Part shown: positions 43,043 through 64,000 of the stretch, piece after piece | How positions within the stretch are numbered: position 1 is the stretch's first letter | Layout: each line of letters opens with the position of its first letter | From: Vicinamibacterales bacterium | GTDB lineage: Bacteria; Acidobacteriota; Vicinamibacteria; Vicinamibacterales; 2-12-FULL-66-21 | Direction of reading: 5' to 3' | NCBI GenBank assembly: GCA_048594885.1 | Contig: JBMDXB010000142.1 | Location: 2,148-66,147 of the forward strand | Length of the DNA: 64,000 nt | Position numbers and translations under genes: made by a program | The notes under the pieces: generated by a model | Database searches by the model: none | The model's input: only the letters and a program-made list of their open reading frames with translations | Told to the model about the DNA's origin: nothing

Positions 43043-43572
43043 ACATCACCTTCAATCCGTTCGGCGTCTTCCTGGCGATCGCCGGCGTCGGGTTCCTGTT
43101 CCTGATCGTGACGCTCGCGTTCGGCGAGATCTTCGATTTCTTCGACGCCGATCATGACTTCGATCACAGCCACGGCGGGCCGGGCTTCTTCAGCAGCCGC
43201 GTCATGGCGGTGTTCATCACCGCTTTCGGCGGCTTCGGCGCGATCGGCAGCCACTACGGCCTGACCGTCGTCGAGTCATCGGCCGTCGGTGTCGCCGGAG
43301 GCGTCATCTTCGGCGGACTGATTTACGTGTTCGCGCGATTCCTCTACAGCCAGCAGGCTTCGTCCGAGGTGCGGCCGACGGATCTCGTCGGTCAGTCTGG
43401 ACGTGTGGTCATCGCGATCCCCGCCGGCGGCCTCGGACAGGTGCGCTGCCGCATCGGCGAGGAGCTCGTCGACAAGATCGCGCGGACGCAGGACGGGCAG
43501 CCGCTGCCCGAGAACGCCACCGTGCTCGTCGCTGAAGTGCTCGGAGAAACCGTCGTCGTCAAGAAGCCCTGA
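43039..43572 (+). CDS. NfeD family membrane protein (short form, OB-fold C-terminus)
   Basis: Two TM helices followed by a beta-rich C-terminus. ATG overlaps the S9 peptidase stop (ATGA). Flotillin follows 16 nt later. Confidence 0.75.
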   Translation: MNITFNPFGVFLAIAGVGFLFLIVTLAFGEIFDFFDADHDFDHSHGGPGFFSSRVMAVFITAFGGFGAIGSHYGLTVVESSAVGVAGGVIFGGLIYVFARFLYSQQASSEVRPTDLVGQSGRVVIAIPAGGLGQVRCRIGEELVDKIARTQDGQPLPENATVLVAEVLGETVVVKKP

Positions 43573-43587
43573 ATCGAGGGAACCCAT

Positions 43588-45165
43588 ATGCTGGACCTGT
43601 TCAGTCCTCTCGCCATTCCGTTCATCGTGCTGGCGGTGGTCCTCGGCTTTCTCGCCGCGGGCTACTTGTTCAGCCGGAACTACATCAAGGTCTCGCCCAA
43701 CGCCGTTGCGGTGCTGAGCGGACGCAAGCGCAAGCTGCCGGACGGCCGGGTCGTCGGCTACCGGATGGTCCGCGGCGGCGCCGCGCTCCGCATCCCGCTG
43801 CTCGAGAAGGTCGAGTACCTGCACCTCAACGTGATGACGATCCCGCTCGAGATCAAGCGGGCGTACACGCTGAAGGGCGTGCCGGTCTCCGTCAAGGCCG
43901 TGGCGAACGTGAAGATCCGCGGCGACGACACGTCGCTGCAGGCGGCGGCCGAGCGGTTCCTGGGCATGACGCACGACACGATCCAGAAGGTCATCTTCCA
44001 GACGCTCGAAGGCCACCTCCGATCGATCCTCGGCACGCTGACCGTCGAGGAGGTCAACAGCGACCGTCAGAGCTTCGCGCAGAAGCTGACGACGGAGGCC
44101 GCGACCGACCTCGAGAAGATGGGCATCGGCGTCGACGTTCTCACGATCCAGGAGATCTCGGACGAAGAGGACTACCTGAACGCCCTCGGCAAGCGACGCA
44201 CCGCGGAGGTCAAGCGGGACGCGACCATCGGCGAGGCGGAGGCGCACCGCGACGCGAAGATCAAGTCGGCGGTGGCACTGCAGGAAGGCGAGCAGGCGAA
44301 GTTCAAGGCGGACGCCGAGATCGCCCAGGCGCAGCGCGACTTCGCCATCCGCCAGGCGCAGTACCAAGCTGAAATCGAGACGCAGAAGGCGCGTGCCGAG
44401 CAGGCTGGGCCGCTTTCCGAGGCTACGGCGCGGCAGGCGGTCGTCGCCGAGGAAGTGAAGGTCGAGCGCACGCGCACGCAGGAGCTGATCTCCGTCCAGG
44501 AACAGGAGGTCCTGCGCCGGCAGAAAGAGCTCGAAGCGACGGTCATCAAGCCGGCCGAAGCCGATCGCCAGGCCGCGGTCGTGCGCGCGGAAGCGAACAA
44601 GCAGGCTTCCATCCTCGAAGCCGAAGGCCGCCGCGCCGCGCTCATCGCCATGGCGCAGGCGGAGCAGGAAAAGCTGAAGCAGGAAGGCATCGGACGCGCC
44701 GCCGCCGTCGAGGCGGAGGGCAGGGCGGAAGCCGCGAAGATCGAGGCAATCGGTCTTGCACAGGCGAAGGCGATCGAGGCGCAGGGGACGGCCGAAGCCG
44801 CCGCGATTCTTCGCAAGGCGGAAGCGTGGAAGGAGTTCAACGACGCGGCGCGCCTGCAGACGATCCTCGAGAAGCTCCCGGCGATCATCCAGGCCTCGAC
44901 GGGCGTGTTCGGCGCGGTGGCCGCTCCGCTCGGCAACATCGACAAGGTGGTCGTGATCGACCAGGGCAACGGCGCAGCGGACGGCGGCGGCATCGGCAAG
45001 ATCGCGAAGGCCGGGCCGTCGGTGGTGTTCAACCTGCTGCAGCAGCTCGAGGCGCTCGGCCTGAACGTGCCAACCGTGATGCAGCAGCTCGGCGTTGCAT
45101 CTGCCGCGACGGCGGCGCCGCCGGTCGTCACGGCGACGCCGGTGCCGGAGCCGAAGAAGAACTGA
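43588..45165 (+). CDS. Flotillin family (SPFH/band-7) protein
   Basis: N-terminal TM, an SPFH domain and a long A/E-rich coiled coil (EAEGRRAALIAMAQAEQEK...). Confidence 0.85.
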   Translation: MLDLFSPLAIPFIVLAVVLGFLAAGYLFSRNYIKVSPNAVAVLSGRKRKLPDGRVVGYRMVRGGAALRIPLLEKVEYLHLNVMTIPLEIKRAYTLKGVPVSVKAVANVKIRGDDTSLQAAAERFLGMTHDTIQKVIFQTLEGHLRSILGTLTVEEVNSDRQSFAQKLTTEAATDLEKMGIGVDVLTIQEISDEEDYLNALGKRRTAEVKRDATIGEAEAHRDAKIKSAVALQEGEQAKFKADAEIAQAQRDFAIRQAQYQAEIETQKARAEQAGPLSEATARQAVVAEEVKVERTRTQELISVQEQEVLRRQKELEATVIKPAEADRQAAVVRAEANKQASILEAEGRRAALIAMAQAEQEKLKQEGIGRAAAVEAEGRAEAAKIEAIGLAQAKAIEAQGTAEAAAILRKAEAWKEFNDAARLQTILEKLPAIIQASTGVFGAVAAPLGNIDKVVVIDQGNGAADGGGIGKIAKAGPSVVFNLLQQLEALGLNVPTVMQQLGVASAATAAPPVVTATPVPEPKKN

Positions 45166-45227
45166 CATCGTGCGTGTGATGACGCGTCTGGCGCGGCCGA
45201 GCTTGCCGCCGCCAGACGCGATCGACC

Positions 45228-46865
45228 ATGCGCATCGACGAACCCCTGCGCCGAGGCCGTGACGCCTACGCGCACCGAGCGTGGGCAGAAGCCTGCACGC
45301 TGCTCGACACCGCCGCACAGGCGGCGCCGCTTCCTGCCGAAGATCTCGAACGCCTTGCCACCGCGGCCGTATCTCATTGGACGCGACGAGGCGAGCATCG
45401 ACGCCTGGACCAGCGCGCACAACGCATACCTCGGCGCACGCGACGTGCCTCGAGCCGTGCGCTGCGCGTTCTGGCTGATTATGGCTCTGGCGTCGTCGGG
45501 CGAGTGGGCGCGTGCCGGCGGATGGCTGGCCACCGCGCGGCGCCTGCTCGATGCCGGCAGCCACGACTGCGCCGAGCGAGGTCTCCTCCGCGTGCTCCGT
45601 GCGCGCACCAATCTGAAGAACCGCGATCAGTCGGCTGCTGAGGACGACGCACGCCAGGCGATCGCCCTCGGCGATCGGTTCGACGATCCCGAGCTGGCGC
45701 TGTTCGGCCTTCTTTCGCTCGCCCTCGTGCTGACGAGAAGCGGACGCGCCGCGGACGCCGTCGCGCTGTTCGACGAGGTCATGGTTGGTGTCACGACGCG
45801 CGACGTGTCGCCCATCGCCGTTGGCACCGTTTACTGCGCGGTGATCGACGGCTGCTACGAAATCCTCGATGTGGGGCGCGCACGCGAGTGGACCGACGCG
45901 CTGTCGCGGTGGTGCGCCGCTCAACCCGAGATGGTCCCCTTCCGTGGCCACTGCCTCGTGCACCGCGCCGAGACCATGCGCTTCTGCGGCGCGTGGTCGA
46001 GCGCAGCGGACGAGGCCGAGAGCGCGTGCCGTCAGGCCTCACGGCTCGCAGGCATTCCGATTGGCGCCGCGTTCTACGAGCTCGCTGAGATCCACCGGAT
46101 GCGCGGCAGATTCGAGGAGGCGGAGGAAGCCTACCGTCGCGCCAGCGAGAACGGCCGATCGCCGGAACCCGGGCTCGCGTTGCTCCGGCTCGCGCAGGGC
46201 CGCGTGACGCTGGCGGAAGCGGCAATACGCCGCGCGCCCCAGTCGCAGAACCGGTTCGTGCGGGCCGGCGTTCTGATGGCCGCCGTCGAGATCATGGTGG
46301 CGGTGCGCGATCTTGCAGCCGCGCATGCGGCGGCCGGCGAGCTATCGCGAATGGCTGCCGATGTCGGAACGCCATTCCTGCGGGCCGCGTCCGCCCAGGC
46401 GGCCGGTGCCCTTCTCCTCGCGGAGAACAGGCCACGCGAGGCGTTCGATCTCCTGCGCTCTGCGTGGATGGAATGGCAGGGCATCGAAGTGCCGTACGAG
46501 GCTGCGCGCGTGCGCGTGGCAATGGGCCTGGCGTGTCGCGATCTCGGCGATCACGACGGCGCGGAACTGGAGTTTTCGGCGGCGCGGCGCGTGTTCGAGC
46601 GCCTCGATGCTGCGCCCGATCTCGCGAGGGTGGACGACTGCTGGGATCGGCTCCTTCCGCAGCCCCGCCTCTCGCGCCGCTCACGACTCGCGAGCTGCAG
46701 GTCCTACGGCTGATTGCGGCGGGCCGCACCAACCGCGACATCGCCGGGCAACTCGCCATCAGCGCCCGCACCGTCGATCGACACGTCAGCAATATCCTCA
46801 CGAAACTTGATCTCGCCTCTCGCTCCGCGGCGACCGCTTACGCCTACGAGCACGGCCTCATCTAA
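45228..46865 (+). pseudogene. LuxR-family (large ATP/TPR-type N-terminus + C-terminal HTH) regulator interrupted by two frameshifts
   Basis: The coherent protein runs in frame 3 (45228-~45380), then frame 1 (~45380-~46650), then frame 3 again to the LuxR HTH ([38 protein letters not shown]). Confidence 0.5.
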
Positions 46866-51016: not shown

Positions 51017-52903
51017 TCACACCGTCCCGGCGGGCGCGGCCGTCTTCGCGGCGCACGGGTCGCCGTAGAAGCAGTACGCCGCGTATGAGTCCTCGGCGCG
51101 TTCCGGGTCGTAGGCGCGCGCCCTGAACTCCTGCAGGATCTCGGCGAACGGCTTCGATTCGATCTGCTCGTAGAAGCCGCGCGCGACCTCGTTGGCAATT
51201 TCGTCCTTGACGCTCCAGAGCGGAGCGATGACCGCAGCCGCGCCTTTCCTGATGAACGCCGAGGCGAAGCCGCCGACGCCGATCAGTCCCGGCTTCGTGC
51301 GCCCGACCTCGCACGCATTCAGGAACACGAGCGGCGGCGCCTGCGCGAACGCTGCATCGGCCGCATCCATGCCCTCGAACGTCGTGGACGCCAGCGTCGC
51401 ATCGTTGTCGAGATAAATCGTCTGGTCGGTGGCGTCGTCGGTGCCGTGACACGCGATGTGGATCAGGTGACGGCCGCCCGCCTTGAAGTGCTTCTCGATG
51501 TTCGCGAAGGTCGCAGGATCGATTCGCTCGGCGCGGCGCTTCTCGACGAGCAGCTCGGCTTCCTTCTGCGCGAGCGGCAGGTCGCGCGTTCCGGCGTAGC
51601 GGGGCGCGATCACGTAGGCATCCGCAAGCGAGAGGCTGCGGCCGCCGGCGATGGCTCCGGGCGCCGTCCAGCGGCCGATCGTGAATTCGACGCCGAGCGG
51701 CGGACGCGTTTCGGTCGCGGCGCCGAGGCGGCGCACCGGGATCATCAGCTCCCACGGGATGAACGGCTCGTCGGAGACGATCGCCACGGTCTTCGGCAGC
51801 TTTCCGGCGTCGACCAGCGACCAGAACACCTTCTGAAACACCGCCGGCGACGCCATGAACAGGCGCCGGCCAGCGCCCTTGAGCCGCGCGACGAGCTCGG
51901 GCGGCTGCGATTCCCCCGTGAATCCGTTCAGGTAGTCCGCGACGATGTCGCGCGAAACCTCCGGGAGATTCCATTCGCCGGTCACACCGGATGCGTACTC
52001 CGGCAGCAGCGACGTATGAACGGTGCACCAGAACTGACGCCCGTCGTTGATTGGCTTCGCCACGACGGTGACGGTCAGGTCCGCCGGCTCGCCGCCGTCA
52101 ATCGTCACGCGACCCGATCGGGCGGGCGCGACGCGTTCACGGGACGTCCTCGCCACGGAACCGGCCGGCCGCCCACGCCAATGAAACACCGCGGTCAGAC
52201 CTGGAACGCCTTGCTGCAGCTTCGCGGCGTCGTCGAGGGTTCGCACCTGGAACGTGGCCGCCTCGGACCGCTCCTGGGCGCGTGAAATCAACAGGGTTCG
52301 GCTCGTCGCGCCGATGACTGTGAAATGCTCCGTCGGAAGCAGTGTGACATCCACGACGGCCTCGTCGTTTGCCGTTTCGATCGAGAGCTCATCGACGATC
52401 TCGCCGTCGCGCGCCGCGGCGGTGTCGACATACACGCGGACGTCGATCGTTGTCGACGGCTCGAGCGCGTCGTCTGACACATCCATGTGCGGCGTCCGCC
52501 GCAACGGCCGCCTGACGCCGCCGCCCGCCTCCTCGCCCTCGAATGCAAAGGCGTCGCGAAACACTCCCGTCGGTCGTCCGGGCGCCGTCTGCGAGAGCGC
52601 ATCGATCGCCGCCTGCGCCCGCTCGCGGTAAGCGCTGGAGGATTCGGCGAGCTGACGCATCAGTTTCATTCCGTCCCGAGCGCGTCCTATCGCCACGAGA
52701 TGTTGTGCCTTCTCGAATCGAAGCAGATCGGCACGCTCGCTGATGCGCTCCAGGTACTGCTTCGCCTCCTCGGACGAGGCGTCGTTTCGCGCGATTAACT
52801 GACGGAAGAGCACCGCCGCCTCAGTGTCGTTGCCCTGCTCGAAGAGAGAGACGGCTTCCGCAAAGAGCCACGTCCTGGTGGACACGGTGGACACGTCGGA
52901 CAC
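51017..52903 (-). CDS. CHAT-domain (caspase-like) protease with uncharacterised ~400-aa N-terminal region
   Basis: His/Cys dyad motifs LIHIACHGT and LVFLNACEVG. The GTG start has an AGGGGG RBS 10 nt after the upstream gene's stop. Confidence 0.75.
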   Translation of the reverse strand: MSDVSTVSTRTWLFAEAVSLFEQGNDTEAAVLFRQLIARNDASSEEAKQYLERISERADLLRFEKAQHLVAIGRARDGMKLMRQLAESSSAYRERAQAAIDALSQTAPGRPTGVFRDAFAFEGEEAGGGVRRPLRRTPHMDVSDDALEPSTTIDVRVYVDTAAARDGEIVDELSIETANDEAVVDVTLLPTEHFTVIGATSRTLLISRAQERSEAATFQVRTLDDAAKLQQGVPGLTAVFHWRGRPAGSVARTSRERVAPARSGRVTIDGGEPADLTVTVVAKPINDGRQFWCTVHTSLLPEYASGVTGEWNLPEVSRDIVADYLNGFTGESQPPELVARLKGAGRRLFMASPAVFQKVFWSLVDAGKLPKTVAIVSDEPFIPWELMIPVRRLGAATETRPPLGVEFTIGRWTAPGAIAGGRSLSLADAYVIAPRYAGTRDLPLAQKEAELLVEKRRAERIDPATFANIEKHFKAGGRHLIHIACHGTDDATDQTIYLDNDATLASTTFEGMDAADAAFAQAPPLVFLNACEVGRTKPGLIGVGGFASAFIRKGAAAVIAPLWSVKDEIANEVARGFYEQIESKPFAEILQEFRARAYDPERAEDSYAAYCFYGDPCAAKTAAPAGTV

Positions 52904-52913
52904 GGTGAACCCC

Positions 52914-54335
52914 CTATGCCTGGAACTTCTCGGTTTTGTGCGCAAAGCCGTTTTCGTCGACGTACGTCACGGACACGGACGGGCCGTCGATGTCCGCGAC
53001 CGCGTGCCCGAACAGCGCCCATTTTTCGAGTCCCTTGTCGATGAAGCTGCGGTACTCGTAATTCCCCGGCTTCGGATACGGGTCGTTCTCTTTGTGCGAC
53101 ATGTACACGGGGACGCCGCCGTGACCGATGCACCGGCCGAACTGGACCCCGTTGAACGAATCGAACAGCATGCAGCGGTGTTCGTGACCCCAGAACCAGG
53201 CCTTCACGCGATTCGAGGCCAGCACGTTCGACAGCCGGTCGGGGATGATCGTTCCCGCTTGTTCATACGCGCTGAAGGGCTGGTGATGACTGAGGAGCAG
53301 GAGCTGTCTGGTGTCGCCCTGCGCCGCATCGTGGAGCCACTTCGCCTGCGGCGCTTCGAGGCCGCCGTCCTCCCATGCCGTGTCGAGACCGACGATGCGC
53401 CAGGAGTCGTTGAAGAGGCTGAAGTAGCTGCAGCGTGCCTGTCGAGCGAAACGCGGATCGGCAAGCAGCGTGTCGTAGAAGCCGTGGCCGCCGGAGTACA
53501 TGTCGTGGTTGCCGTTCAAACACCACGATCCGACGCGATCGCTTTCTTCCGGGCGCACCGGCCAGTACGGCAGGAATCGCTTCTGGTACTCGGACGCCCA
53601 TCCGGAGTAGTACACGTCGCCGAGGTGGAGGACGTGCACTTCCCGTCCCTCGTCGAGGCCCTGCTGGACGCTGCGCCGCATTTCGGCGGCGACCTTCTGC
53701 GCGCGCGGCAGTCCCGACCCCCAGTCGCCGACCATCACGAGACGCGCACGCTCGGCCAGCCGGATCGGTGCCGGGGGCTGGTCATTGAACTTCTTCTTGT
53801 CGCGGAGCTTTCTGATGCCCATCGCGAAGACTGAGCTCACCCAGCCGGGATCGGTGATGGAGAACTTGTCGAAGAGGCGGCGTCCGGCGGCCCGGCGTGC
53901 CGACACACCGGGCAGCGACTGCGTCGTCACGGCAACCTCTTCGTCGCGGCCGCCGCGCCGGCCTGACGGCTTTCGCCGATCGTCGGGCTGCGGCTCCTCG
54001 ACGGCGCGAGACTGCCAGTACTCGTCGAGCGCCGACTGCAGGTTGCTGATGATCGGATCGCGGCTGAAGAAAGAGAAGTCGTCGAGCGGCGCGGGTGGCG
54101 CGCTGCGGCGACCGGTCGGCTGCGGCGGAAAGCTCGGCTGTCCGCTGGATGCAGCCCGCTCCGCTTTCTCGGCCTGCTCGAGCCGCGCGAGCGCCTCCGC
54201 GTAGTCCTCCGGCGTAAGCTCGACAGCAGCGGGAGCCGACGGCTCCGCCCGTGTCGTAACCGTTTGCGTCAGTTGTTTCTTGACGGTCTCGAGGTGATCG
54301 AGAACCGTGTCCCGATGGAGTACTTGCGCAAGCAT
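52914..54335 (-). CDS. Calcineurin-like metallophosphoesterase with N-terminal coiled-coil/Pro-rich extension
   Basis: GDWGSG, GDVYY, GNHD and GHEH motifs. The ATG at 54335 has an AGGAGA RBS. An alternative start lies at 54371. Confidence 0.75.
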   Translation of the reverse strand: MLAQVLHRDTVLDHLETVKKQLTQTVTTRAEPSAPAAVELTPEDYAEALARLEQAEKAERAASSGQPSFPPQPTGRRSAPPAPLDDFSFFSRDPIISNLQSALDEYWQSRAVEEPQPDDRRKPSGRRGGRDEEVAVTTQSLPGVSARRAAGRRLFDKFSITDPGWVSSVFAMGIRKLRDKKKFNDQPPAPIRLAERARLVMVGDWGSGLPRAQKVAAEMRRSVQQGLDEGREVHVLHLGDVYYSGWASEYQKRFLPYWPVRPEESDRVGSWCLNGNHDMYSGGHGFYDTLLADPRFARQARCSYFSLFNDSWRIVGLDTAWEDGGLEAPQAKWLHDAAQGDTRQLLLLSHHQPFSAYEQAGTIIPDRLSNVLASNRVKAWFWGHEHRCMLFDSFNGVQFGRCIGHGGVPVYMSHKENDPYPKPGNYEYRSFIDKGLEKWALFGHAVADIDGPSVSVTYVDENGFAHKTEKFQA

Positions 54336-54416: not shown

Positions 54417-56891
54417 TTACTGATCGTTCAGCGCGATCAGCGGATCGATGCGAGCGGCGCGGCCGGCGGGCATGCTGCAGGCCGTCAAGGCGACCAGGCC
54501 GAGCACGATCGCGACCAGGGCGAGGACCAGCGGATCGGTCGCTGCGACACCGTACAGCTGCGCCTCGACGAAGCGGCGAACGCCGAACGCGCCGGCCAAT
54601 CCGAGCCCAACGCCCACTGCGAGCAGCGCCGCTCCTTCCCTGAGCACGAGCGCGAAGATGCCGCGGGCGGTGCTGCCGAGCGCAAGGCGGATTCCGATCT
54701 CCTTGCGTCGCTGAGTGACCTGGTACGCCAGCACGCCGTAGATGCCGACGGCCGCAAGGAACATTGCGACGGCGCCGAAGGCGGCAGCGAGCAGCATCGG
54801 CGTCCTGCGCGAGACGAGCGATTCGTCGACGCGCTCCTGCATCGGGCGCACGCTGAAGAACGGCAGCTCCGGATCGATGGCTGCCAGCCGCTGCCGGATC
54901 GACGTTGTCAGCGCCGCGACATCGCCTGACGCCTGCGTCACCAGCGTCATCCCGCCGCGCTCGGCCTGAGCAAAGGGGAAGTAGTACATGCCGACCGGCT
55001 CCCGCTCGGTCAACCCGGTGACGCGCACGTTTCCGACCACACCCACGACCGTGTAGTACTTCGTGTTCGGGCCGGGGCCCTGCTGCAGCTCCTGGGCCGA
55101 TTCCGGCTGCCACAATCGGCGTCCGATCGGATCCCGCTCTCCCCAGAACCTCTTCGCCAGCCGTGCGTCGACGATGATCACCTTCGGCGCACGTTGGTCG
55201 TCCGAGTCCGCAAACAGCCGGCCGCGGACGAGCGGGATCGACATGGCCTCGAAGTATCCCGGCGACACGGCGACGTTGAATGGTGAGATCAGCGACTCGC
55301 CCGGAGACATCACGTAGCCTTCGGCGAGGATGACGCTGTCGCTATAGTTGCCGCCGAACGGCAGGGTGCTCGTGACGCCCGCCGCCCGCACGCCGGGCAG
55401 CGAGCGAACGGCCGGCAGGAGCCGATTCCAGAACGCGATGCGCTGCGCGTTCTCCGGGTACCGCGATGGCGGCGGACTGACGATGCCCGTCAGGACGCGA
55501 TCTGGCTCGAAGCCGGGGTTCACGCGGAGCACGCGTTGAAAGCTCGCCAGCAGGAGGCCCGCTCCGATGAGCAGCATGAACGCGAACGCGATCTGCGCTG
55601 CCACCAGCACGCGGCGCACGGCCCGCGCGCCGCGTCCTGCGGTACCGGTTCGTCCGTCTTCGCGGAACGCCTGACTCAGGTTCATGTGACGGATGCCGAG
55701 CACCGGCAGGACTCCTATCGTCATGCCGATGATCGCGGCGGCTGCCACTGTCGCCATCACGACGATGCCATCGATCCCCACCGCGGTGCCTTGCGGCGTT
55801 CGATCGAGCGACACGGTCGAAAGCAGCCGCACCGCGGCGTACGCGAGCGCGAGGCCAAGGACCGATCCGCCGGTCGCGATGAGGAGACTCTCGGTCAGGA
55901 GCTGTCGTGCGAGCCGGGCGAGGCCGGCGCCGAGCGCGTGCCGGGTCGCCAGCTCCTTCACCCGCGCCGTCGAGCGCACGAGCATCAGGTTGGTCACGTT
56001 CACCACGCCGATGAGGAGCACGAACGCGGCGCCGCCCCAGAGCAGATAGAGCGTGCTCCGCATGCTGCGGACCAGGTATTCATGAAGCGGAACGACGACT
56101 GTGTGAAAGCCGGCGTTGATCAGAATCTGCTTCAATGCGGGGAAGCGATCCAGATTGCGCGCGTTCAGGGCGTCGATCTGCTGGCGCGCTTGTTCTAAGG
56201 TCGCACCTGGCTTCAGGCGCGCGAGATAGGACCAGTTGTTGCTGTGCCGCGACTCGTCCGAACGGTCGCTGGCGGAGAACGCCACCGGCAGCCAGACGCG
56301 CACGTCCGGATCGAGAAACGTGAAATCCTGCGGCAGCACGCCAATCACCACGAAGGGCTCGCCGTTGATGCGAACGTCCTTGCCGATCGCATCGTCGCGG
56401 CCGCCGAACCACGCCTGCCACGACGCGTACGTCAGCACCGCCTTGCGCGTATTGCCTTCCTGGCCGTCGGCGTCGTCGAACACGCGCCCCTTCAACGGCT
56501 TGACCCGAAGCAGCCGAAGCAGAGAGGGTGTTCCGAGCATCGACACGACCCGCTGCGGATCGCCCATGCCGCCAATCGTGACTCCGCGTGTGTTGTAGAG
56601 CGCCTGTTCCTGGAACACGTCGGTTTCGCGCAGGCGGTCGAAATAGTCGGGGACGCCGGTCGATCCGCGATCGTCCGCCAACCCGGCGCCCGGGTAGGCG
56701 TTGTACATGTGCACAAGCTGTTCGGGCTCCGGCACTGGCAGCGGCCGCAGAAGCACGGAGTGCACGATGGCGAACATGGCGGCGTTCGCGCCGACGCAGA
56801 TGGCAAGAGTCAGGATGGTGGTGACGGTGAATCCGCGATCTCGAGCGAGCACACGGATCGCGAATCTGAGATCTTCCCGGAGGCGTTCCAT
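54417..56891 (-). CDS. ADOP-family FtsX/MacB-like permease (no adjacent PadR)
   Basis: 824 aa, N-terminus [43 protein letters not shown]. Confidence 0.85.
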
Positions 56892-57125: not shown

Positions 57126-58421
57126 TTAGAAGATGAAGAAGACCTCGCCGCCGCCACCGCCGAACCGCGGATTGACGACGTTGTTGAAGATCGAGCCGAA
57201 GGAATAGCTGACGTTCAGGCTGACCGAATAGCGGTAGCCCGTTGCGAGCTGACGCTGGCGGACGAGGATCTCCTCGGGCGTCGCGCCGCCGCGCGGCAGA
57301 TAGATCTGATCGCGCGTGCGCGAGATGCTCGCGAACATCCCGACCGAGAATCCCTTGAACAGCCGTACGTCGGCGCTGCCGAACGACGTGACGTTGTACT
57401 TGTCCGGCTTGCTCAGATACTGCGAGAACGTCACGTCGCCGAAGAGGCTGCCCCACGGCTGACGCATGCTGATCGACGTCGACAGCCGGTGATCCATCAA
57501 CTGCTCGGACGTCTTCTCGAAGATCGTCTCCTCCTCGTAATCGAACGCGTTGTGTCCGATCGTGTACTGCACGGTGAACATGCGGCGCGTGGACTCCGAG
57601 TACGGGAAGAAGTCGTACTCGACGCCTCCGGCGAGCCGCGTGCGCATGTCGTAGTTGAAGAAGGTGGAGACGGTGTAGGTGCCGAGCGCCGCGGCCGACC
57701 AGTGCTCCGTCAGGCTCTTGACGAGACGTCCGCTCGCGTCGACGTTGCGTGAGATCGACTTGAACGTCTCCGTCTCACTGAGCTCGAAGGTGCTGTCGCG
57801 GTAGCTGGCGCTCGTCGAGAACCCGAATTTCCAGTCCGGCGTCGTCCGGTTGGCCGAGATGCTTGCGCGAAGCGACTTGCTGTTGTTGGACCGCTCGCCG
57901 CTGAAGCTGCTGCCGAAGCTGGTCCTGAAGACCCAGAGGTTCCAGGGATCCTTCTTCGGATCCGCGGCCTGCTCGCCGCCGGCGGGGGCCGTGAACGTGA
58001 TCTTCAAGCGGGAACCGAGCGGCGTTTCGGCCACGTAGCGGACCAGACCGCGTTTGAGCACTTCGGCGACGGCGCGGCGCCGCTCGTCGTCGGTCGCCGT
58101 CTGCGGCACGATTTCGGTCAGCGTCTGCTCGACGCCCGCGAACCGCCCCTGGCCGATGAATTTGAGCGTGTATTCGGTTCCGCCGCCCCCCGTGCTCTGC
58201 GTCGTGACGAGCACGTGCAGGTCCGCATCCTTCCGGTCGCGCATGTAATCGACGAACGTAATCTCGGTTCGGAAGAACGTCTCGTCGCACCAGTCGCAGT
58301 CGATGAAGAGGCGAAGAGCGCCGGTGCGCCCGCCCGCGGCCGTCTCCTGAGCGATTGCAGGCGTGGAAAGCCCGAACAGGAGCGCAAGAGCGGCGGCCAA
58401 CGCGCGCAGGGGCGGGAGCAT
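57126..58421 (-). CDS. Hypothetical outer-membrane beta-barrel protein (paralog 1), C-terminal ...EVFFIF
   Basis: Signal peptide, N-terminal CxxC ([35 protein letters not shown]), an alternating beta pattern and a terminal Phe. Confidence 0.6.
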
Positions 58422-58465
58422 ACGCCCCTTAGACGTGGCCGGCCCCCGTTTTGATGGGAAAACCG

Positions 58466-59728
58466 CTAGCCGCCCTCGCGAAATCTCGGATTGACGACGT
58501 TGTTGAAGATGGACCCGAAGGTGTAGGTCACGCCCGCGGACAGGCGGTAGCGATACGACGTCGCGAGCTGCCGTCGCCGCAGCAGGATCTCCTCGTCCGT
58601 CGCGTCGCCGGCGCGCAGGTACAACTGGTCGCGGATTCTCGACACCGACCCATCCAGGTTCAGCGACAGCCCCTTGAAGAGCCGCACGTCGATGTCGCCG
58701 AACACCGCCACGCGGTGACGCCCCGGATCGTGGAAGTAGGTGGACGCCTCGACCGATAGTCCGCTGCTGCCCCACGGTTGCCGGACATCGAACGACGAGA
58801 GATAGATCACACTGCCGGCCGTCTCGCGATCCTTGCCGTAGATCGTCGTCTCCATGTAGTCGAAGTTCGTGACCGCAACCGTCAACTGGTTGACCAGTTG
58901 CCGCCGGCTCGACTCCGAGTAGGGGAAGAAGTTGTATTCGACACCTCCGGCGACGCGCACGGCACGATCCTGGTTGACGAAGGTCGACGAGCTCACGCGC
59001 GCACGGGCGGCGGCGGCCCAATGCGTGCCCACGCTGCGGACGATCATCGCCCCGGCGCTGTGATCGTGCGACGTGTCCGTCAGCGTCTCGCCGTCGCTCA
59101 GCGTGAAGACGTTCTCGCGGAAATTCAGGTTCACCGAGCCGCTGATCTTCCACGCCTCGGTCGTCCGGTTCGCCGACACGGACGTCGAGACGTTGCGCGC
59201 GCTGTTGCTGCGCTCGCCGTTGATCGAGCCGCTTCCGCGTATGCGGAAAATCCAGTAGTTCCACGGATCGGTGGTCGGCGTCGTGGCGCCGCCCGGGGAC
59301 TGCGCGGGCGGTCGGTACACGAGCTGGAGATTGTCCGCCAGCGCGGTGGACGTGACGTAGCGGACGAGGCCGAGCTTCAGAATCCGCGTGTAGCCGCGCC
59401 GGCGGTCGTCGTCGGTGTCGTTCTGTGCCGACGTGTACCGCAGCTCGTCGTCGATGCCGGCGAAGCGCTGCAGGCCGATGAACTCGAAGACCCACTCGAG
59501 CCCGCCGCTGCCGGTCCCTTGCGTGGTGACGAGGATGTGCAGATCCGCATCCTTGCGGTCGCGGACGTAGTCCACGAACGAAATTTCGCGGCGGAGGTAA
59601 TCGAAGTCACAGCGCGGGCAATCGAGAAAGACCCGAAGCGTGTCACGCGGCTGTGCCGCGGCGTCCGGCTGGGCCGCCGCGGCGAGTGGCATGGCAATCA
59701 GTGCCAGGAATACGAACGTACGAATCAC
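58466..59728 (-). CDS. Hypothetical outer-membrane beta-barrel protein (paralog 2 of the preceding gene)
   Basis: About 45% identical to the neighbour, with the same CxxC ... [21 protein letters not shown]-terminus and [11 protein letters not shown]-terminus. Confidence 0.6.
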   Translation of the reverse strand: MIRTFVFLALIAMPLAAAAQPDAAAQPRDTLRVFLDCPRCDFDYLRREISFVDYVRDRKDADLHILVTTQGTGSGGLEWVFEFIGLQRFAGIDDELRYTSAQNDTDDDRRRGYTRILKLGLVRYVTSTALADNLQLVYRPPAQSPGGATTPTTDPWNYWIFRIRGSGSINGERSNSARNVSTSVSANRTTEAWKISGSVNLNFRENVFTLSDGETLTDTSHDHSAGAMIVRSVGTHWAAAARARVSSSTFVNQDRAVRVAGGVEYNFFPYSESSRRQLVNQLTVAVTNFDYMETTIYGKDRETAGSVIYLSSFDVRQPWGSSGLSVEASTYFHDPGRHRVAVFGDIDVRLFKGLSLNLDGSVSRIRDQLYLRAGDATDEEILLRRRQLATSYRYRLSAGVTYTFGSIFNNVVNPRFREGG

Positions 59729-61077
59729 TATTGAGTTGAGCGGCCTCGCCCCTGAGGCGTATCTGCGATTGAAACGATGCGCCCGTCGACGAACACGTGA
59801 CGGACGCGGACCTTCTCGTCGAACAGCTCTCCCTGCGTTACGACGAGGTTCGCGAGTTTTCCTTTCTCGAGCGATCCAACGCGGTCGGCAACGCCGGCAA
59901 TACGTGCCGCATCGATCGTCAGCGCGCGAATGGCCGCGTCGGCCGGCAGGCCTTCCTTCACCACGCGTGCGGCGTTTCGGAGAAAGTCGCGCGGCTCGCG
60001 AAGGCCGCTCGAGGCGAAGGCGAAGCGGACGCCTGCCTTTTCGAGCGCCACCGGCACCTTCGGCGCCTGCGCCCGCAGCCGCAGCTCGCGCAGAGGCTCG
60101 TCTGCGTCGGGCGCCAGCGTTCTCGACCGCGTCGGGAAGTTCAGGCTGTAGACGACCCTGGCGTTGCGAGCTTTCAGATCGGCCGCGACGGTGTCCGCTT
60201 CGCGCCCGCCGGTGATCACCGGGTCCAGCGTGAACTCCTTCGCCATGTCGAGCGCCCGCAGAATCTCGCGCGTCGCGTCCGCCTCGAACGCAACGGGGAG
60301 CCGCCCCGCCAGCGCCGGCTGCATCGCGTCGAGCGCCGGGTCGTAGATCGGCCGCGGCCCGGTCTTCGCCTTGTCGTAGTGCTGCTGCTGGAGCTGGTGA
60401 TGCCGCGCGTCGAGGAACGTCTGCCGAACGAACGCGATGGTGCCCATCAGCGACGCGGGGTAGCCGCCGCCGCGGCCGCCGCCGCCGAAGTCGACGTGCA
60501 GCGCGACCGGCGCGCGCACGACCTGCACGCCGCGCCGCGGATCCGCCGGCGCGCCGATCTGCGGGGCGTCGGGCGGCGCGGCGACGTTCACGAGCGCACT
60601 GCGTCCCTTGAAGATGCCGCTTGCCGGCGTCGCCAGCACCGCCGTCACGCCCGCCGACGCCATGCGCGCGAGCTCCGGCGCGTCCGGCCGCACCTGCGCG
60701 GCGGCGTCGAGATCCGGCCGCAGAATCACGCTGCGCCTGAATCGCTCCGCTTCTTCCGTCGTCCTGAAGGTCGCCGGCGCCACCGGCGCAGCGGGGTCGA
60801 TGCCGGCGCTGTTACCCATGTCGATCAGACCGGGATACACCGTCAGTCCCGCGCCGTCGATGACGACGGCTTCCGCCGGCGCCTGCACGTCGGCGCCGAC
60901 CGCCTCGATGAGGCCGTCGCGCAGCACGATCGTTCCCGACGGAATCGGCGCTCCGGCCGCCGTGACGATGCGGGCTCCCTTGATCGCGTACACCACAGGC
61001 GCGTCGGCGCGTACGCCGATGGTGAACGTCGCAACCGTCACCGCCATCCATGCGCCGAGAATCGTCTTTGTGCTCAT
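59728..61077 (-). CDS. Secreted amidohydrolase family protein
   Basis: Signal peptide plus amidohydrolase motifs (GLIDMGNS ... C-terminal GKLANLVV). Confidence 0.75.
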   Translation of the reverse strand: MSTKTILGAWMAVTVATFTIGVRADAPVVYAIKGARIVTAAGAPIPSGTIVLRDGLIEAVGADVQAPAEAVVIDGAGLTVYPGLIDMGNSAGIDPAAPVAPATFRTTEEAERFRRSVILRPDLDAAAQVRPDAPELARMASAGVTAVLATPASGIFKGRSALVNVAAPPDAPQIGAPADPRRGVQVVRAPVALHVDFGGGGRGGGYPASLMGTIAFVRQTFLDARHHQLQQQHYDKAKTGPRPIYDPALDAMQPALAGRLPVAFEADATREILRALDMAKEFTLDPVITGGREADTVAADLKARNARVVYSLNFPTRSRTLAPDADEPLRELRLRAQAPKVPVALEKAGVRFAFASSGLREPRDFLRNAARVVKEGLPADAAIRALTIDAARIAGVADRVGSLEKGKLANLVVTQGELFDEKVRVRHVFVDGRIVSIADTPQGRGRSTQ

Positions 61078-61086
61078 GTGTGGCTC

Positions 61087-63771: not shown

Positions 63772-64000
63772 GCGAGTCCTCCCATGATCAGTTGAAGGTG
63801 GGTACCGGCCCTTCGGGAAACGAGAAACTGTACCAAATCGCAGCCGCCCGACGCAAAACAACGCCGAGGCGGCAGAGGACGCCGAGATCGCCGAGGGATC
63901 AAGGTGATTTGAGCGTTATCAGGCCGCCGTGCGCCCGCCTGCGGCGGGCGTAGTGAGAGCGAGTGGAGTGGTGGACGTAAGCACGGACATCATCACCGCG

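Follow-up and report, generated by a model that had tools for sequence, protein, structure and literature searches.

A purple-acid-phosphatase-like metallophosphoesterase and a TPR–CHAT protease form a conserved gene pair, a candidate protease–effector module

The window, a 64,000-nt stretch of DNA from a Vicinamibacterales bacterium, encodes a purple-acid-phosphatase-like metallophosphoesterase (MPE) directly followed by a TPR–CHAT protease (CHAT). Comparison of homologous loci supported the view that MPE and CHAT work as one tightly coupled unit, which is conserved in many phyla of soil bacteria. We propose that the pair may be a self-contained protease–effector conflict module, with CHAT cutting and thereby activating the phosphatase; to this reading we give an even chance. 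If true, it would be the as yet unstudied phosphatase version of a recently described class of bacterial conflict or immunity modules, in which proteolysis activates a dormant toxic enzyme.

The gene pair and its conservation

Both genes are real, and both lie on the minus strand (Table 1). The motifs originally read in them (GDWGSG, GDVYY, GNHD, GHEH, HIACHGT, and NACEVG) are all present. Pfam searches matched MPE to Metallophos PF00149 (E = 1.3e-13, residues 210–400 of the 485-aa ORF) and CHAT to PF12770 (E = 3.5e-20, residues 438–604), as had been expected. The start codon of MPE was confirmed because homologues align from MIAQVLNR. The length of CHAT equals that of database protein P0001.

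Table 1. Coordinates of the features of the gene pair in the window
Feature	Position	Strand	Remarks
MPE gene	52914..54335	-	473 aa; ATG 54335, TAG 52916-52914; purple-acid-phosphatase-like, proposed latent effector
MPE N-terminal extension, residues 1-195	53751..54335	-	three helices and connecting loops; conserved
Site 1, Arg76-Arg77	54105..54110	-	consensus ERR↓G; candidate cleavage or docking site
Site 2, Arg120-Arg121 ... Arg126-Arg127-Gly128	53955..53978	-	consensus DDRR↓G; candidate cleavage site
Site 3, Arg152-Arg153	53877..53882	-	consensus GRRxFDKF
PAP-type catalytic domain	52917..53750	-	ligands D204, D240, Y243, N276, H351 (or H350), H384, H386
MPE TAG and 10-nt spacer GGGGTTCACC	52904..52916	-	read from sequence
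Imperfect 9-nt tandem repeat GGTGGACAC x3.4	52877..52907	.	spans CHAT start codon and first codons; TRF score 48, 81% matches
TPR-CHAT protease gene	51017..52903	-	628 aa; GTG 52903, TGA 51019-51017
Variable N-terminal TPR-like helical domain, residues 4-106	52586..52894	-	five helices in model; proposed sensor/regulatory module
RRTPHMD motif, R135-D141	52481..52501	-	opens conserved core directly after disordered linker (residues 108-127)
Beta-sandwich middle region, residues 132-312	51968..52510	-	part of conserved core; AF2 secondary structure
CHAT protease domain, residues 372-621	51041..51790	-	His486 at 51446-51448, Cys531 at 51311-51313

In the window sequence, the spacer between MPE and CHAT is exactly 10 nt. 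The G-rich, Shine–Dalgarno-like run of the CHAT gene abuts the MPE stop codon, which suggests that the two genes are translationally coupled. The original prediction had this arrangement reversed, placing the CHAT stop codon within the ribosome-binding site of its partner. No minus-strand terminator was found inside the pair. Tight spacing (−8 to +30 nt) was also seen in most of 30 other loci. The 9-mer tandem repeat noted earlier was detected by TRF, but no significance could be attached to it. It only encodes VSD-VST-VST at the CHAT N-terminus and is missing from the nearest CHAT homologue (P0002, 82% identical), so it is probably trivial.

MPE and CHAT are paired clearly beyond chance. MPE was present at 60 of the 68 evaluable CHAT-anchored metagenome loci. 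Conversely, 36 of 80 MPE-anchored genome loci had a close CHAT gene, nearly always immediately downstream of MPE on the same strand, and four to five more had a distant one (about 40/80 in total). The 36 paired loci belong to Acidobacteriota, Thermoanaerobaculia, Alphaproteobacteria, Gemmatimonadota, Verrucomicrobiota, Actinomycetota, Burkholderiales, and Arenicellales, and the roughly 40 CHAT-carrying loci come from at least seven phyla. MPE–CHAT fusions fell into at least four distinct 50%-identity clusters. The pairwise-identity matrices of MPE and CHAT were correlated in a mirror-tree analysis (r = 0.88, Mantel 0/2000). The phylum count, the 60/68 loci, the fusion clusters, and this correlation together refute a coincidental adjacency of two unrelated genes, to which we assign practically no probability. 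The co-occurrence expected in other genomes was thus found, and conserved operon geometry, cross-phylum co-occurrence, repeated independent fusion, and co-divergence bear out the description of the pair as a tightly coupled unit. The family is rare and patchy (290/185,579 species genomes).

The phosphatase and the protease

The MPE family profile was compared with PDB sequences. The sole matches were six purple acid phosphatase (PAP/TRAP) entries, with E-values between 7e-14 (the human, rat, and pig enzymes) and 3e-12. The AlphaFold 2 (AF2) model of the MPE monomer had a pLDDT of 92.7 and a pTM of 0.93, and a Foldseek search with it returned PAPs at ranks 1–8 (top E = 3e-15), its best matches being those of the profile. 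More than 2600 MPE homologues were found, the best 120 of them full length. The PAP ligand motifs (pattern DxG / GDxxY / GNH(D/E) / VxxH / GHxH) appear in MPE as GDWG, GDVYY, GNHD, LSHH, and GHEH. The seven metal ligands, among them the Tyr that binds Fe(III) (Y243), are invariant among 118 homologues, and the catalytic domain aligns with residues 5–298 of TRAP/ACP5 structures. By sequence and model, MPE is a homologue of the mammalian-type purple acid phosphatases. A point against a toxic effector is that no enzyme of this family is known to act as a toxin.

The N-terminal extension had been described as a coiled-coil, Pro-rich segment. It is not a mere tail, since it is conserved in the family and was modeled at high confidence (pLDDT ~90) except for a loop around residues 120–130. 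The motifs MIAQVLNR, SSGQPGF, LDDFSFFSRDP..SNLQSALE, and RRxFDKFSITDxGWVSS are conserved in 30–118 homologues. Unpaired MPEs keep most of the extension, indicating that it has a CHAT-independent function.

The Arg-Arg (RR) loops of the extension are largely restricted to CHAT-paired MPEs. RR was present at site 1 in 26 of 35 paired MPEs, and the segment is deleted in unpaired ones. Site 2 had RR in 34/35 paired versus 6/36 unpaired MPEs, and site 3 in 34/35 versus 2/36. At least two of the three sites were found in 34/35 paired and 1/36 unpaired MPEs; the unpaired proteins lack about 30 residues in this part of the sequence. Among 118 aligned homologues, R153 never varies and R152 is at least 90% conserved. 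The site 2 loop is the only low-confidence or disordered loop of the AF2 model (pLDDT ~52). Clear RR motifs were absent from MPEs with a distant CHAT (L042, L043, and L052) or a C14 caspase (pC6.5d). As the unpaired MPEs are mostly from one actinobacterial clade, the correlation between RR loops and CHAT may represent no more than one or two evolutionary events.

In CHAT, His486 (HIACHG) and Cys531 (NACEVG) do not vary among 29 homologues, and the predicted catalytic dyad is intact. The protein is conserved in all homologues from residue ~134 on. P138 and H139 of the RRTPHMD motif are invariant and R136 is conserved at 90% or more; the motif marks the junction of variable domain and core in all fusions examined. 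Upstream of the core, homologues carry replacements: basic tails, HEAT repeats, a Ser/Thr kinase, a GMC oxidoreductase, DUF7379, a second CHAT, or MPE itself.

Judged from sequence, the MPE slot is interchangeable in a few relatives with Pepco or an α/β-hydrolase on the same CHAT core. Pepco (E = 4e-13) is encoded upstream of the kinase–CHAT relative P0248, with an 8-nt overlap. In L098, L100, and P0021 the partner is the α/β-hydrolase-like DUF7379, as a separate gene or a fusion. Pepco and an α/β-hydrolase have been shown experimentally to be protease-activated death effectors (PMC12642450).

Possible roles of the two proteins

In the protease–effector reading, MPE would be a latent, zymogen-like phosphatase whose ~200-residue extension packs on the catalytic domain. 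CHAT would be triggered via its variable N-terminal domain, most likely by infection or by another invasive or stress signal. From the distribution of the RR loops and by analogy, we infer that CHAT may cleave MPE there, after Arg in Arg-Arg(-Gly), at about R77, R127, and possibly R153. The cut would remove or rearrange the inhibitory extension. The freed phosphatase could then act unrestrained on nucleotides, phosphometabolites, or phosphoproteins, leading to cell arrest or death. Activation by cleavage is, like the substrate, trigger, and defence role named here, something we infer. Of the roles first suggested, the sensor/effector, abortive-infection-like one fits best in this conflict-type version, with the defence function being only a proposal.

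The roles may instead be reversed, which we consider unlikely. CHAT would then be a promiscuous Arg-specific effector, as are the type IV Thoeris caspase and PCaspase, and MPE its regulator. MPE might hydrolyse a nucleotide or ADPR-type messenger as a threshold or off-switch, or dephosphorylate the protease or its substrates. Calcineurin-superfamily phosphoesterases of conflict systems are indeed predicted to act on (cyclic) nucleotides (PMC7159879), but the nearest relatives of MPE are PAP-type phosphomonoesterases, not cyclic-nucleotide phosphodiesterases. MPE adjoins TIR and caspase genes on two Rhizobiaceae plasmids; however, a nucleotide-generating enzyme (TIR or cyclase) is not conserved beside the pair, and none is present in the window. 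Phospho-regulation is hinted at by relatives in which this CHAT core is joined to a Ser/Thr kinase. Against a regulatory role, the MPE slot is filled in relatives by the toxins Pepco or α/β-hydrolase rather than by regulators, and RR↓G loops peculiar to CHAT-paired MPEs suit a substrate better than a regulator.

The genomic context bears on a further reading, in which the pair is an accessory physiological module, not an immune one. Proteolysis and phosphatase would serve stress, redox, phosphate metabolism, or development of soil bacteria, and CHAT could serve to mature a phosphatase pro-enzyme, perhaps in connection with GMC-oxidoreductase chemistry. We regard this reading as rather improbable. 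It agrees with the housekeeping genes that flank the pair in both the window and the nearest relative, and with those near fusion P0028, which is located among lipid A genes. The flanks in the window comprise ADOP permeases, PadR, and DUF481, and no defence genes were found in them. Synteny around the pair is conserved in Thermoanaerobaculia and in the nearest relative. This synteny and the position of P0028 imply that the pair is not consistently in defence islands. The GC content is not deviant, and LuxR-type response regulators lie upstream of the pair in four loci. Protease-free MPEs of Actinomycetota adjoin M20 peptidase, acetoacetate-decarboxylase (ADC)-like, GMC oxidoreductase, and YkuD genes, and a distant MPE of Ralstonia follows a GMC oxidoreductase and cytochrome c. 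A general role of protease–effector modules in stress responses is allowed by Evans et al. (PMC12642450).

Other contexts argue against a physiological module and for one of the conflict type. The pair is rare, phylogenetically patchy, and found on plasmids with IS elements and integrases, and swapping of the partner enzyme and N-terminal domain is typical of conflict systems. It recurs near caspases, extra CHAT, TIR, SIR2, nSTAND, and TRADD-N-associated genes. An Agrobacterium pTi island combines MPE with TIR, three CHAT genes, TIR plus caspase, HipA, and an integrase. A plasmid of R. rhizogenes carries TIR-TIR-caspase-MPE-SIR2 flanked by IS elements. In one genome only, that of Edaphobacter aggregans, the pair is followed by nSTAND NTPases. 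Among 122 neighbour ORFs at 33 loci, the commonest families were Peptidase_C14 (8 ORFs), CHAT (4), and CyanoTRADDas_TM (3). In the window the pair has no neighbouring TIR gene; TIR was not among the recurrent neighbours and was adjacent only on the two plasmids. By inspection, no signal peptide was seen in either protein, which makes a role in scavenging phosphate outside the cell unlikely.

The permeases on both sides of the pair are genuine ADOPs (TIGR03434, 867 and 821 bits), as predicted. A link of the pair to ADOP copy-number dynamics did not hold up. The closest relative (L085/L086) has the pair immediately after its DUF481 gene. Hence the pair has kept its place, and the window has gained an inserted ADOP beside it, the ADOPs being the variable element. 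The PADLOC check suggested earlier gave no support, as PADLOC-DB 2.0 returned 0 families for MPE or CHAT at E <= 0.1.

Comparison with known systems

The closest sequence and fold relative of the MPE catalytic domain is mammalian TRAP/ACP5 (~22% identity, seven ligands in common). TRAP is latent and is activated by cysteine-protease cleavage of its repression loop and reduction of its di-iron centre (cf. the title of PDB 2bq8). Unlike TRAP, MPE is bacterial, cytoplasmic (no signal peptide), and has a 200-aa extension, and its candidate cleavage loops lie in that extension instead of at the repression-loop position. CHAT resembles separase at the fold level only (11–18% identity); separase is a much larger eukaryotic cell-cycle enzyme.

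The TPR plus CHAT architecture and a neighbour-encoded partner recall the type III-E CRISPR Craspase (Csx29 cleaving Csx30), but the partner here is an enzyme and there a sigma-factor regulator, and identity is ~11%. Assignment to Csx29 was rejected: NF041237 scored 13.7 bits against a 300-bit cut-off, and no Cas7-11/gRAMP, CRISPR array, or Csx30/Csx31 was found nearby. SAVED-CHAT acting on PCaspase (type III-B CRISPR) and type IV Thoeris (TIR acting on the caspase-like ThsE) also use clan-CD proteases as transducers or executioners, Arg-specific in those systems, but have no phosphatase component. SAVED-CHAT was rejected, as Pfam gave no SAVED match and the N-terminal part is TPR-like plus β-sandwich. 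Type IV Thoeris was rejected as well, since no TIR or cyclase is conserved with the pair or present in the window, although C14 caspase genes occur beside the pair and TIR plus caspase operons are adjacent on two plasmids. Arg-specificity is common to bacterial caspase-like proteases (10.1101/2024.10.24.620036).

Protease–effector defence modules combine a caspase-, trypsin-, or subtilisin-like protease with an MBL nuclease, α/β-hydrolase, Pepco, EACC1, or others (PMC12642450). The phosphoesterase–CHAT pairing had been thought undescribed, but an uncharacterised protease-associated MPE-like enzyme is already among the ten predicted protease–effector families listed by Evans et al. 2025 (preprint; PMC12642450, citing Krishnan et al. 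2020), who also note that such modules may serve general stress responses. The MPE of Krishnan et al. 2020 occurs in ABC-ATPase 'ABC3C' systems (PMC12642450) and is possibly of another family than that in the window. The pair in the window, by contrast, has neither an ABC ATPase nor a STAND sensor as a fused domain or as a conserved neighbour.

The pair shares with protease–effector modules an adjacent, co-evolving clan-CD cysteine protease and proposed latent enzyme. The variable N-terminal domains of the protease (TPR, HEAT, kinase, and GMC) resemble sensors and may correspond to the sensor part of such modules. The pair differs from the known modules in that the putative effector is a purple-acid-phosphatase-type MPE, and from C14 caspase modules in having as protease a CHAT that brings a β-sandwich core of its own. 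The nearest example is LcCaspase/LcHydrolase, in which the caspase-like protease cuts the α/β-hydrolase at Arg73 and Arg117, both of them conserved R↓G sites (PMC12642450); the candidate Arg↓Gly loops of MPE lie similarly at about 77 and 127.

Organization of the gene pair and its flanks

The original prediction of a linked metallophosphoesterase (MPE) and CHAT protease gene pair was confirmed by Pfam searches. The first ORF matched Metallophos (E 1.3e-13) and the second matched CHAT (E 3.5e-20), and every quoted motif was found in them. The spacer between the two ORFs is 10 nt (GGGGTTCACC). The CHAT stop codon had been placed inside a ribosome-binding site; the arrangement is the reverse, with a Shine-Dalgarno-like G-run adjoining the MPE stop codon. 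The gene organization suggested that MPE and CHAT form a translationally coupled operon of two intact enzymes. A sigma-70 promoter scan of the locus gave no match, and the sole terminator-like matches in a terminator scan were on the wrong strand. The 9-mer repeat reported at the CHAT 5' end is real, but it merely encodes VSD-VST-VST and is missing from an 82%-identical homologue. The GC content of the window is ~66-67%.

Both flanking permeases were ADOP proteins, as had been claimed (TIGR03434, 867 and 821 bits). The closest relative (L085/L086, 82-85% identity) has its genes in the order DUF481, MPE, CHAT, methyltransferase, LuxR-TPR, and ADOP. Compared with this order, the window has an inserted ADOP gene that separates DUF481 from MPE, and downstream of the pair a PadR gene and an ADOP gene are present in place of the methyltransferase and LuxR-TPR genes. 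This synteny indicated that the ADOP units, and not the pair, are the mobile or variable part of the locus, so the proposed tie between the pair and locus dynamics was not upheld.

Positions of features in the window, in its two proteins and in related loci (L, loci of relatives or database records; P, homologous proteins)
Feature	Locus or protein	Position	Strand	Remarks
MPE ORF	window	ATG 54335 to TAG 52916-52914	-	473 aa, intact
CHAT ORF	window	GTG 52903 to TGA 51019-51017	-	628 aa, intact
9-mer repeat	window	52877-52907		3.4 copies, 81% matches
ADOP permease gene	window	54417-56891		between DUF481 gene and MPE
DUF481 gene	window	57126-59495	-	789 aa, upstream of ADOP; match at C-terminus only
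Two consecutive amidohydrolase-family genes	window	59728-63861	-	449 aa, 924 aa; upstream of DUF481 gene
ORF with no Pfam/NCBIfam match	window	43276-45963	-	895 aa; plus-strand long ORFs overlap, reality uncertain
Five-helix TPR-like domain	window CHAT	residues 4-106		model
Disordered linker	window CHAT	residues 108-127		model
Beta-sandwich region	window CHAT	residues 132-312		model
Helical bundle	window CHAT	residues 317-365		model
CHAT domain	window CHAT	residues 372-621		model
RR site 1	window MPE	R76-R77		consensus ERR-G
RR site 2	window MPE	R126-R127-G128		consensus DDRR-G; sole disordered loop
RR site 3	window MPE	R152-R153		consensus GRRxFDKF
GMC oxidoreductase site	L070	9182-11593		
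GMC oxidoreductase site	L075	4440-7853		
GMC oxidoreductase site	L030	4993-6747	-	
GMC oxidoreductase site	L065	12051-13775	-	
GMC oxidoreductase site	L084	201-6909		
GMC oxidoreductase site	P0018			
Pepco gene and kinase-CHAT fusion	L174	684-3744		
TPR-CHAT gene	L098	42-2000		upstream of DUF7379 + CHAT core
MPE-CHAT on IMG/VR 'viral' contig	L168	6001-9320		33-kb contig
pTiCFBP5877 block	L082	4287-17542		
pC6.5d block	L083	6348-13792		
Pair with STAND-type NTPase genes	L081	11384-16831		
CHAT-SIR2_2 fusion after pair	L044	4648-6225		
Second CHAT gene beside pair	L029	3961-5244		
C14 caspase gene adjoining pair	L012	11860-12999		

Conservation of the pairing

An MPE-anchored scan of 185,579 species genomes returned 290 relatives, and the best 80 were analyzed. 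A close CHAT family was present in 36/80 loci, nearly always directly downstream on the same strand, and a distant CHAT (Pfam E ~1e-19) was present in four or five more. Among the hosts were Acidobacteriota, Thermoanaerobaculia, Bradyrhizobium/Afipia, Gemmatimonadota, Chthoniobacterales, Mycobacterium, Solirubrobacterales, Caballeronia, and Arenicellales. In a metagenome scan anchored on the CHAT core, MPE was found in 60 of 80 loci, 56 of them with MPE upstream on the same strand; 12 of the other 20 were too short to judge and 8 had no MPE. The pairing was conserved in both scans. Intergenic distances were mostly -8 to +30 nt. Pairwise identities of MPE and CHAT were correlated (r = 0.88, Mantel 0/2000, 32 loci, species phylogeny not corrected for), showing, at the level of sequence identity, that the two were inherited or transferred together. 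The MPE-CHAT fusion P0028 was also the query of an exhaustive phmmer search of 1.84 billion cluster representatives, in which full fusions made up at least four separate clusters at 50% identity (P0028, P0032, P0166, and P0168). Co-occurrence, spacing, correlated identities, and fusions excluded chance adjacency. Functional coupling of MPE and CHAT is practically certain.

The ORFs downstream of MPE in L030 and in actinomycete group A were compared with CHAT as possible divergent members, and hhalign found no relationship. A plus-strand ORF in L030 was probably a shadow of the minus-strand GMC oxidoreductase gene. In one actinomycete group (L045, L047, L053, L057, L062, L066, L068, and L076), the MPE lacked the Arg-Arg loops described below, and the genes after it encode a conserved ~380-aa protein that matched nothing in Pfam and an M20 peptidase. 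Among viral contigs, a single close MPE match was found, with CHAT also present, and there was no sign of a phage-borne pair. That pair, on an IMG/VR contig, could lie in a prophage or in a flanking region, or the contig could be misclassified.

Architecture of the two proteins and the Arg-Arg loops

More than 2600 MPE homologues were found at E <= 1e-3. The best 120 of them were all ~470 aa, and their alignments covered 97% of the length, with the first 200 residues among the aligned part. The N-terminal extension carries the conserved motifs MIAQVLNR, SSGQPGF, LDDFSFFSRDP..SNLQSALE, and RRxFDKFSITDxGWVSS. When the family profile was searched against the PDB, purple acid phosphatases (PAPs) alone were matched (human, rat, and pig TRAP/ACP5, E 7e-14). 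The AlphaFold model of MPE (pLDDT 92.7, pTM 0.93) was as confident in the extension as in the catalytic domain, except for one loop at residues ~120-130, and Foldseek ranked eight PAP entries first (E 3e-15, ~22% identity). All seven PAP metal ligands (D204, D240, Y243, N276, H351, H384, and H386) were invariant in 118 sequences. No signal peptide was seen when the MPE translation was inspected by eye. Because of the PAP matches, the intact ligands, and the absent signal peptide, MPE is a cytoplasmic and presumably active homologue of mammalian-type PAPs with a structured N-terminal add-on.

The CHAT protein was modeled in five parts (pLDDT 87.5). Family homology starts at residue ~134, where the motif RRTPHMD hardly varies, and everything N-terminal to this motif is variable among relatives. 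Eight CHAT-anchored loci without MPE and long CHAT family members provided the alternative partners. DUF7379, an alpha/beta-hydrolase-like protein with an HSxGG motif, is a separate upstream gene in L098 and is fused to CHAT in L100 and P0021. The CHAT N-terminus is fused to a Ser/Thr kinase in L149 (P0248) and to a GMC oxidoreductase in P0018, where MPE lies downstream. Other N-terminal variants were HEAT repeats (P0214 and P0235), a second CHAT domain (P0293), and histone-H1-like basic tails (L145). In L174, a 104-aa Pepco gene (PF24393, E 4e-13) precedes a Ser/Thr-kinase-CHAT fusion with an 8-nt overlap and occupies the exact position normally held by MPE. This locus may be an undescribed Pepco module with the kinase as a putative sensor. 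The partner slot and the CHAT N-terminal domain are both modular.

All 80 MPEs were aligned and then split by partner type. At least two of three Arg-Arg (RR) sites in the extension were present in 34/35 MPEs with a close CHAT, in 1/36 without CHAT, and in 0/3 with a distant CHAT, a correlation that may reflect few evolutionary events because most of the unpaired MPEs belong to a single actinobacterial clade. The RR segments were deleted in unpaired MPEs, in which region 62-160 has ~65 residues versus ~96 in paired ones. RRG-type motifs were also present in the linkers preceding RRTPHMD of fusion proteins. From these alignments, the RR loops are the feature likely to tie MPE and CHAT mechanistically, and R77, R127, and R153 are candidate cleavage sites.

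The MPE family also recurs beside GMC oxidoreductases in four phyla. The oxidoreductase gene overlaps MPE by 4 nt in L070, is adjacent to it in L075 and L030, and lies ~2 kb away in ten Solirubrobacterales loci. On 126 Ralstonia megaplasmids, a GMC 'choline dehydrogenase', cytochrome c, and a distant MPE are in an operon. Two controls act on mammalian PAPs, namely cleavage by a cysteine protease and the redox state of the di-iron centre. By analogy, CHAT and GMC partners might both act on the activation state of the phosphatase, with a redox link to the di-metal centre, which is speculative. In a further, quite unlikely reading that the recurrent GMC partner allows, the effector chemistry would be redox-linked and not plain dephosphorylation: H2O2 would drive Fenton-type damage, or the di-iron centre would be gated by its redox state.

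Genomic context, proposed mechanism and relation to known systems

The two nearest ORFs on each side were surveyed in 33 loci (122 ORFs). The commonest neighbours were Peptidase_C14 caspases (8 ORFs), CHAT (4), Sigma70_r4_2 (4, a count inflated by LuxR/GerE-type regulators that cross-hit the model), LuxR-type response regulators (3), and CyanoTRADDas_TM (3); the remaining ones were unrelated housekeeping genes. No third conserved component was found, as each flanking family occurred in at most ~6-8 of 33-35 loci. Flanks were ordinary in the window, its nearest relative, the Thermoanaerobaculia loci, and fusion P0028. These housekeeping contexts, together with the recurrent GMC association of the MPE family, leave some room for a non-immune stress, redox, or maturation module, a reading that we consider rather unlikely.

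Other loci had defence-like surroundings. On Agrobacterium pTiCFBP5877, the order is integrase, HipA, TIR, MPE, CHAT, CHAT, CHAT, wHTH, and TIR + caspase, and MPE and CHAT overlap by 4 nt. The TIR + caspase operon on this Ti plasmid resembles type IV Thoeris. On R. rhizogenes pC6.5d, a block flanked by IS110 and IS256 contains TIR, TIR, a hypothetical gene, a C14 caspase, MPE 20 nt on, and a 1108-aa SIR2 protein; this MPE is partnered with the C14 caspase in place of CHAT, and its RR motifs are weak. In Edaphobacter aggregans (L081), two STAND-type NTPases are encoded behind the pair, and Pfam nSTAND1/nSTAND2 matches one of them. The proteins encoded after this pair, with a 4-nt overlap, are one of 693 aa (ATPase_2/AAA_22), one of 350 aa (nSTAND1), and one of 769 aa that matched nothing in Pfam; upstream of the pair there is an rve integrase fragment. 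A C14 caspase gene adjoins the pair in Bradyrhizobium/Afipia and Mycobacterium/Actinomycetota loci (L009, L012, L022, L024, L026, and L028). By analogy with the SAVED-CHAT to PCaspase cascade, it may form a second protease tier.

PADLOC has no model matching MPE or CHAT, and an NCBIfam search of both proteins gave sub-threshold noise only. The original prediction of a conflict-type module was partly supported: the functional unit stood, the anti-phage role had no database match, and the ADOP link fell. We regard a conflict or defence role as somewhat probable.

In the mechanism that we propose, the TPR-CHAT protease would be kept inactive until its N-terminal domain senses a trigger. CHAT would then cut MPE after Arg in the RR(G) loops, and the freed PAP-type phosphatase would hydrolyze essential phosphorylated molecules, so that growth stops. 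The chances for and against this whole chain appear even. The roles could also be reversed, with CHAT as the executioner and MPE as a signal-degrading or dephosphorylating regulator, which seems improbable. Returning to MPE as the effector, its boldest form is quite unlikely: the first phosphatase-type death effector of prokaryotic immunity, a cytoplasmic di-metal PAP latent under its wrapped extension and armed by CHAT at RR|G, with effector chemistry possibly redox-linked. If true, it would be a bacterial counterpart of the cysteine-protease activation of mammalian TRAP.

The gating of latent toxins by proteases has recently come to be seen as a dominant principle of bacterial immunity. The locus and its several hundred relatives are a concrete case of this kind, compact in being either two genes or one fusion, and its testable features are the three candidate cleavage sites, the dyad His486 and Cys531, and the defined metal centre. 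Should the model hold, phosphatase chemistry would join the immune effector repertoire, one CHAT core would drive three unrelated effector types (MPE, Pepco, and alpha/beta-hydrolase), and the proteolytic activation of mammalian TRAP would have a parallel in mechanism. Even if the model is wrong, the pair remains an unexplained accessory module that is widespread in soil Acidobacteriota, Rhizobiales, and Actinomycetota.

Among the papers searched, none combined 'CHAT domain' and 'metallophosphoesterase', and other combinations gave nothing relevant. Papers on type IV Thoeris, a TIR survey, domain-centric discovery, and nuclease-protease systems made no mention of MPE. 'Protease-effector modules' were described as a widespread defence logic with ten listed families, among them a 'metallophosphoesterase (MPE)-like enzyme' (Evans et al., bioRxiv November 2025, PMC12642450), a protease-associated family that a passage of that paper attributes to a prediction of Krishnan et al. 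2020. Our MPE family probably coincides with, or is close to, this one already predicted in silico. Activation was worked out for four of the ten effector families, and the MPE family is not one of them (PMC12642450). The MBL nuclease and the alpha/beta-hydrolase are zymogens, each cut at two sites; a caspase-like partner cuts the latter within conserved R|G motifs, the sites being Arg73 and Arg117, and Pepco is a pore toxin switched on by cleavage (PMC12642450). At P1, the type IV Thoeris caspase accepts Arg only (10.1101/2024.10.24.620036). The pair offers a clean testable model for the uncharacterized phosphatase branch of proteolysis-gated immunity. As in protease-effector modules, the protease of MPE-CHAT belongs to clan CD and co-evolves with its partner, Pepco and alpha/beta-hydrolase share the effector slot, MPE has RR|G loops at residues ~77 and 127, and the sensor-like domains of the protease vary. 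Judged from sequence, the pair is best classed as a well-delineated addition to the protease-effector module class and not as a categorically new system.
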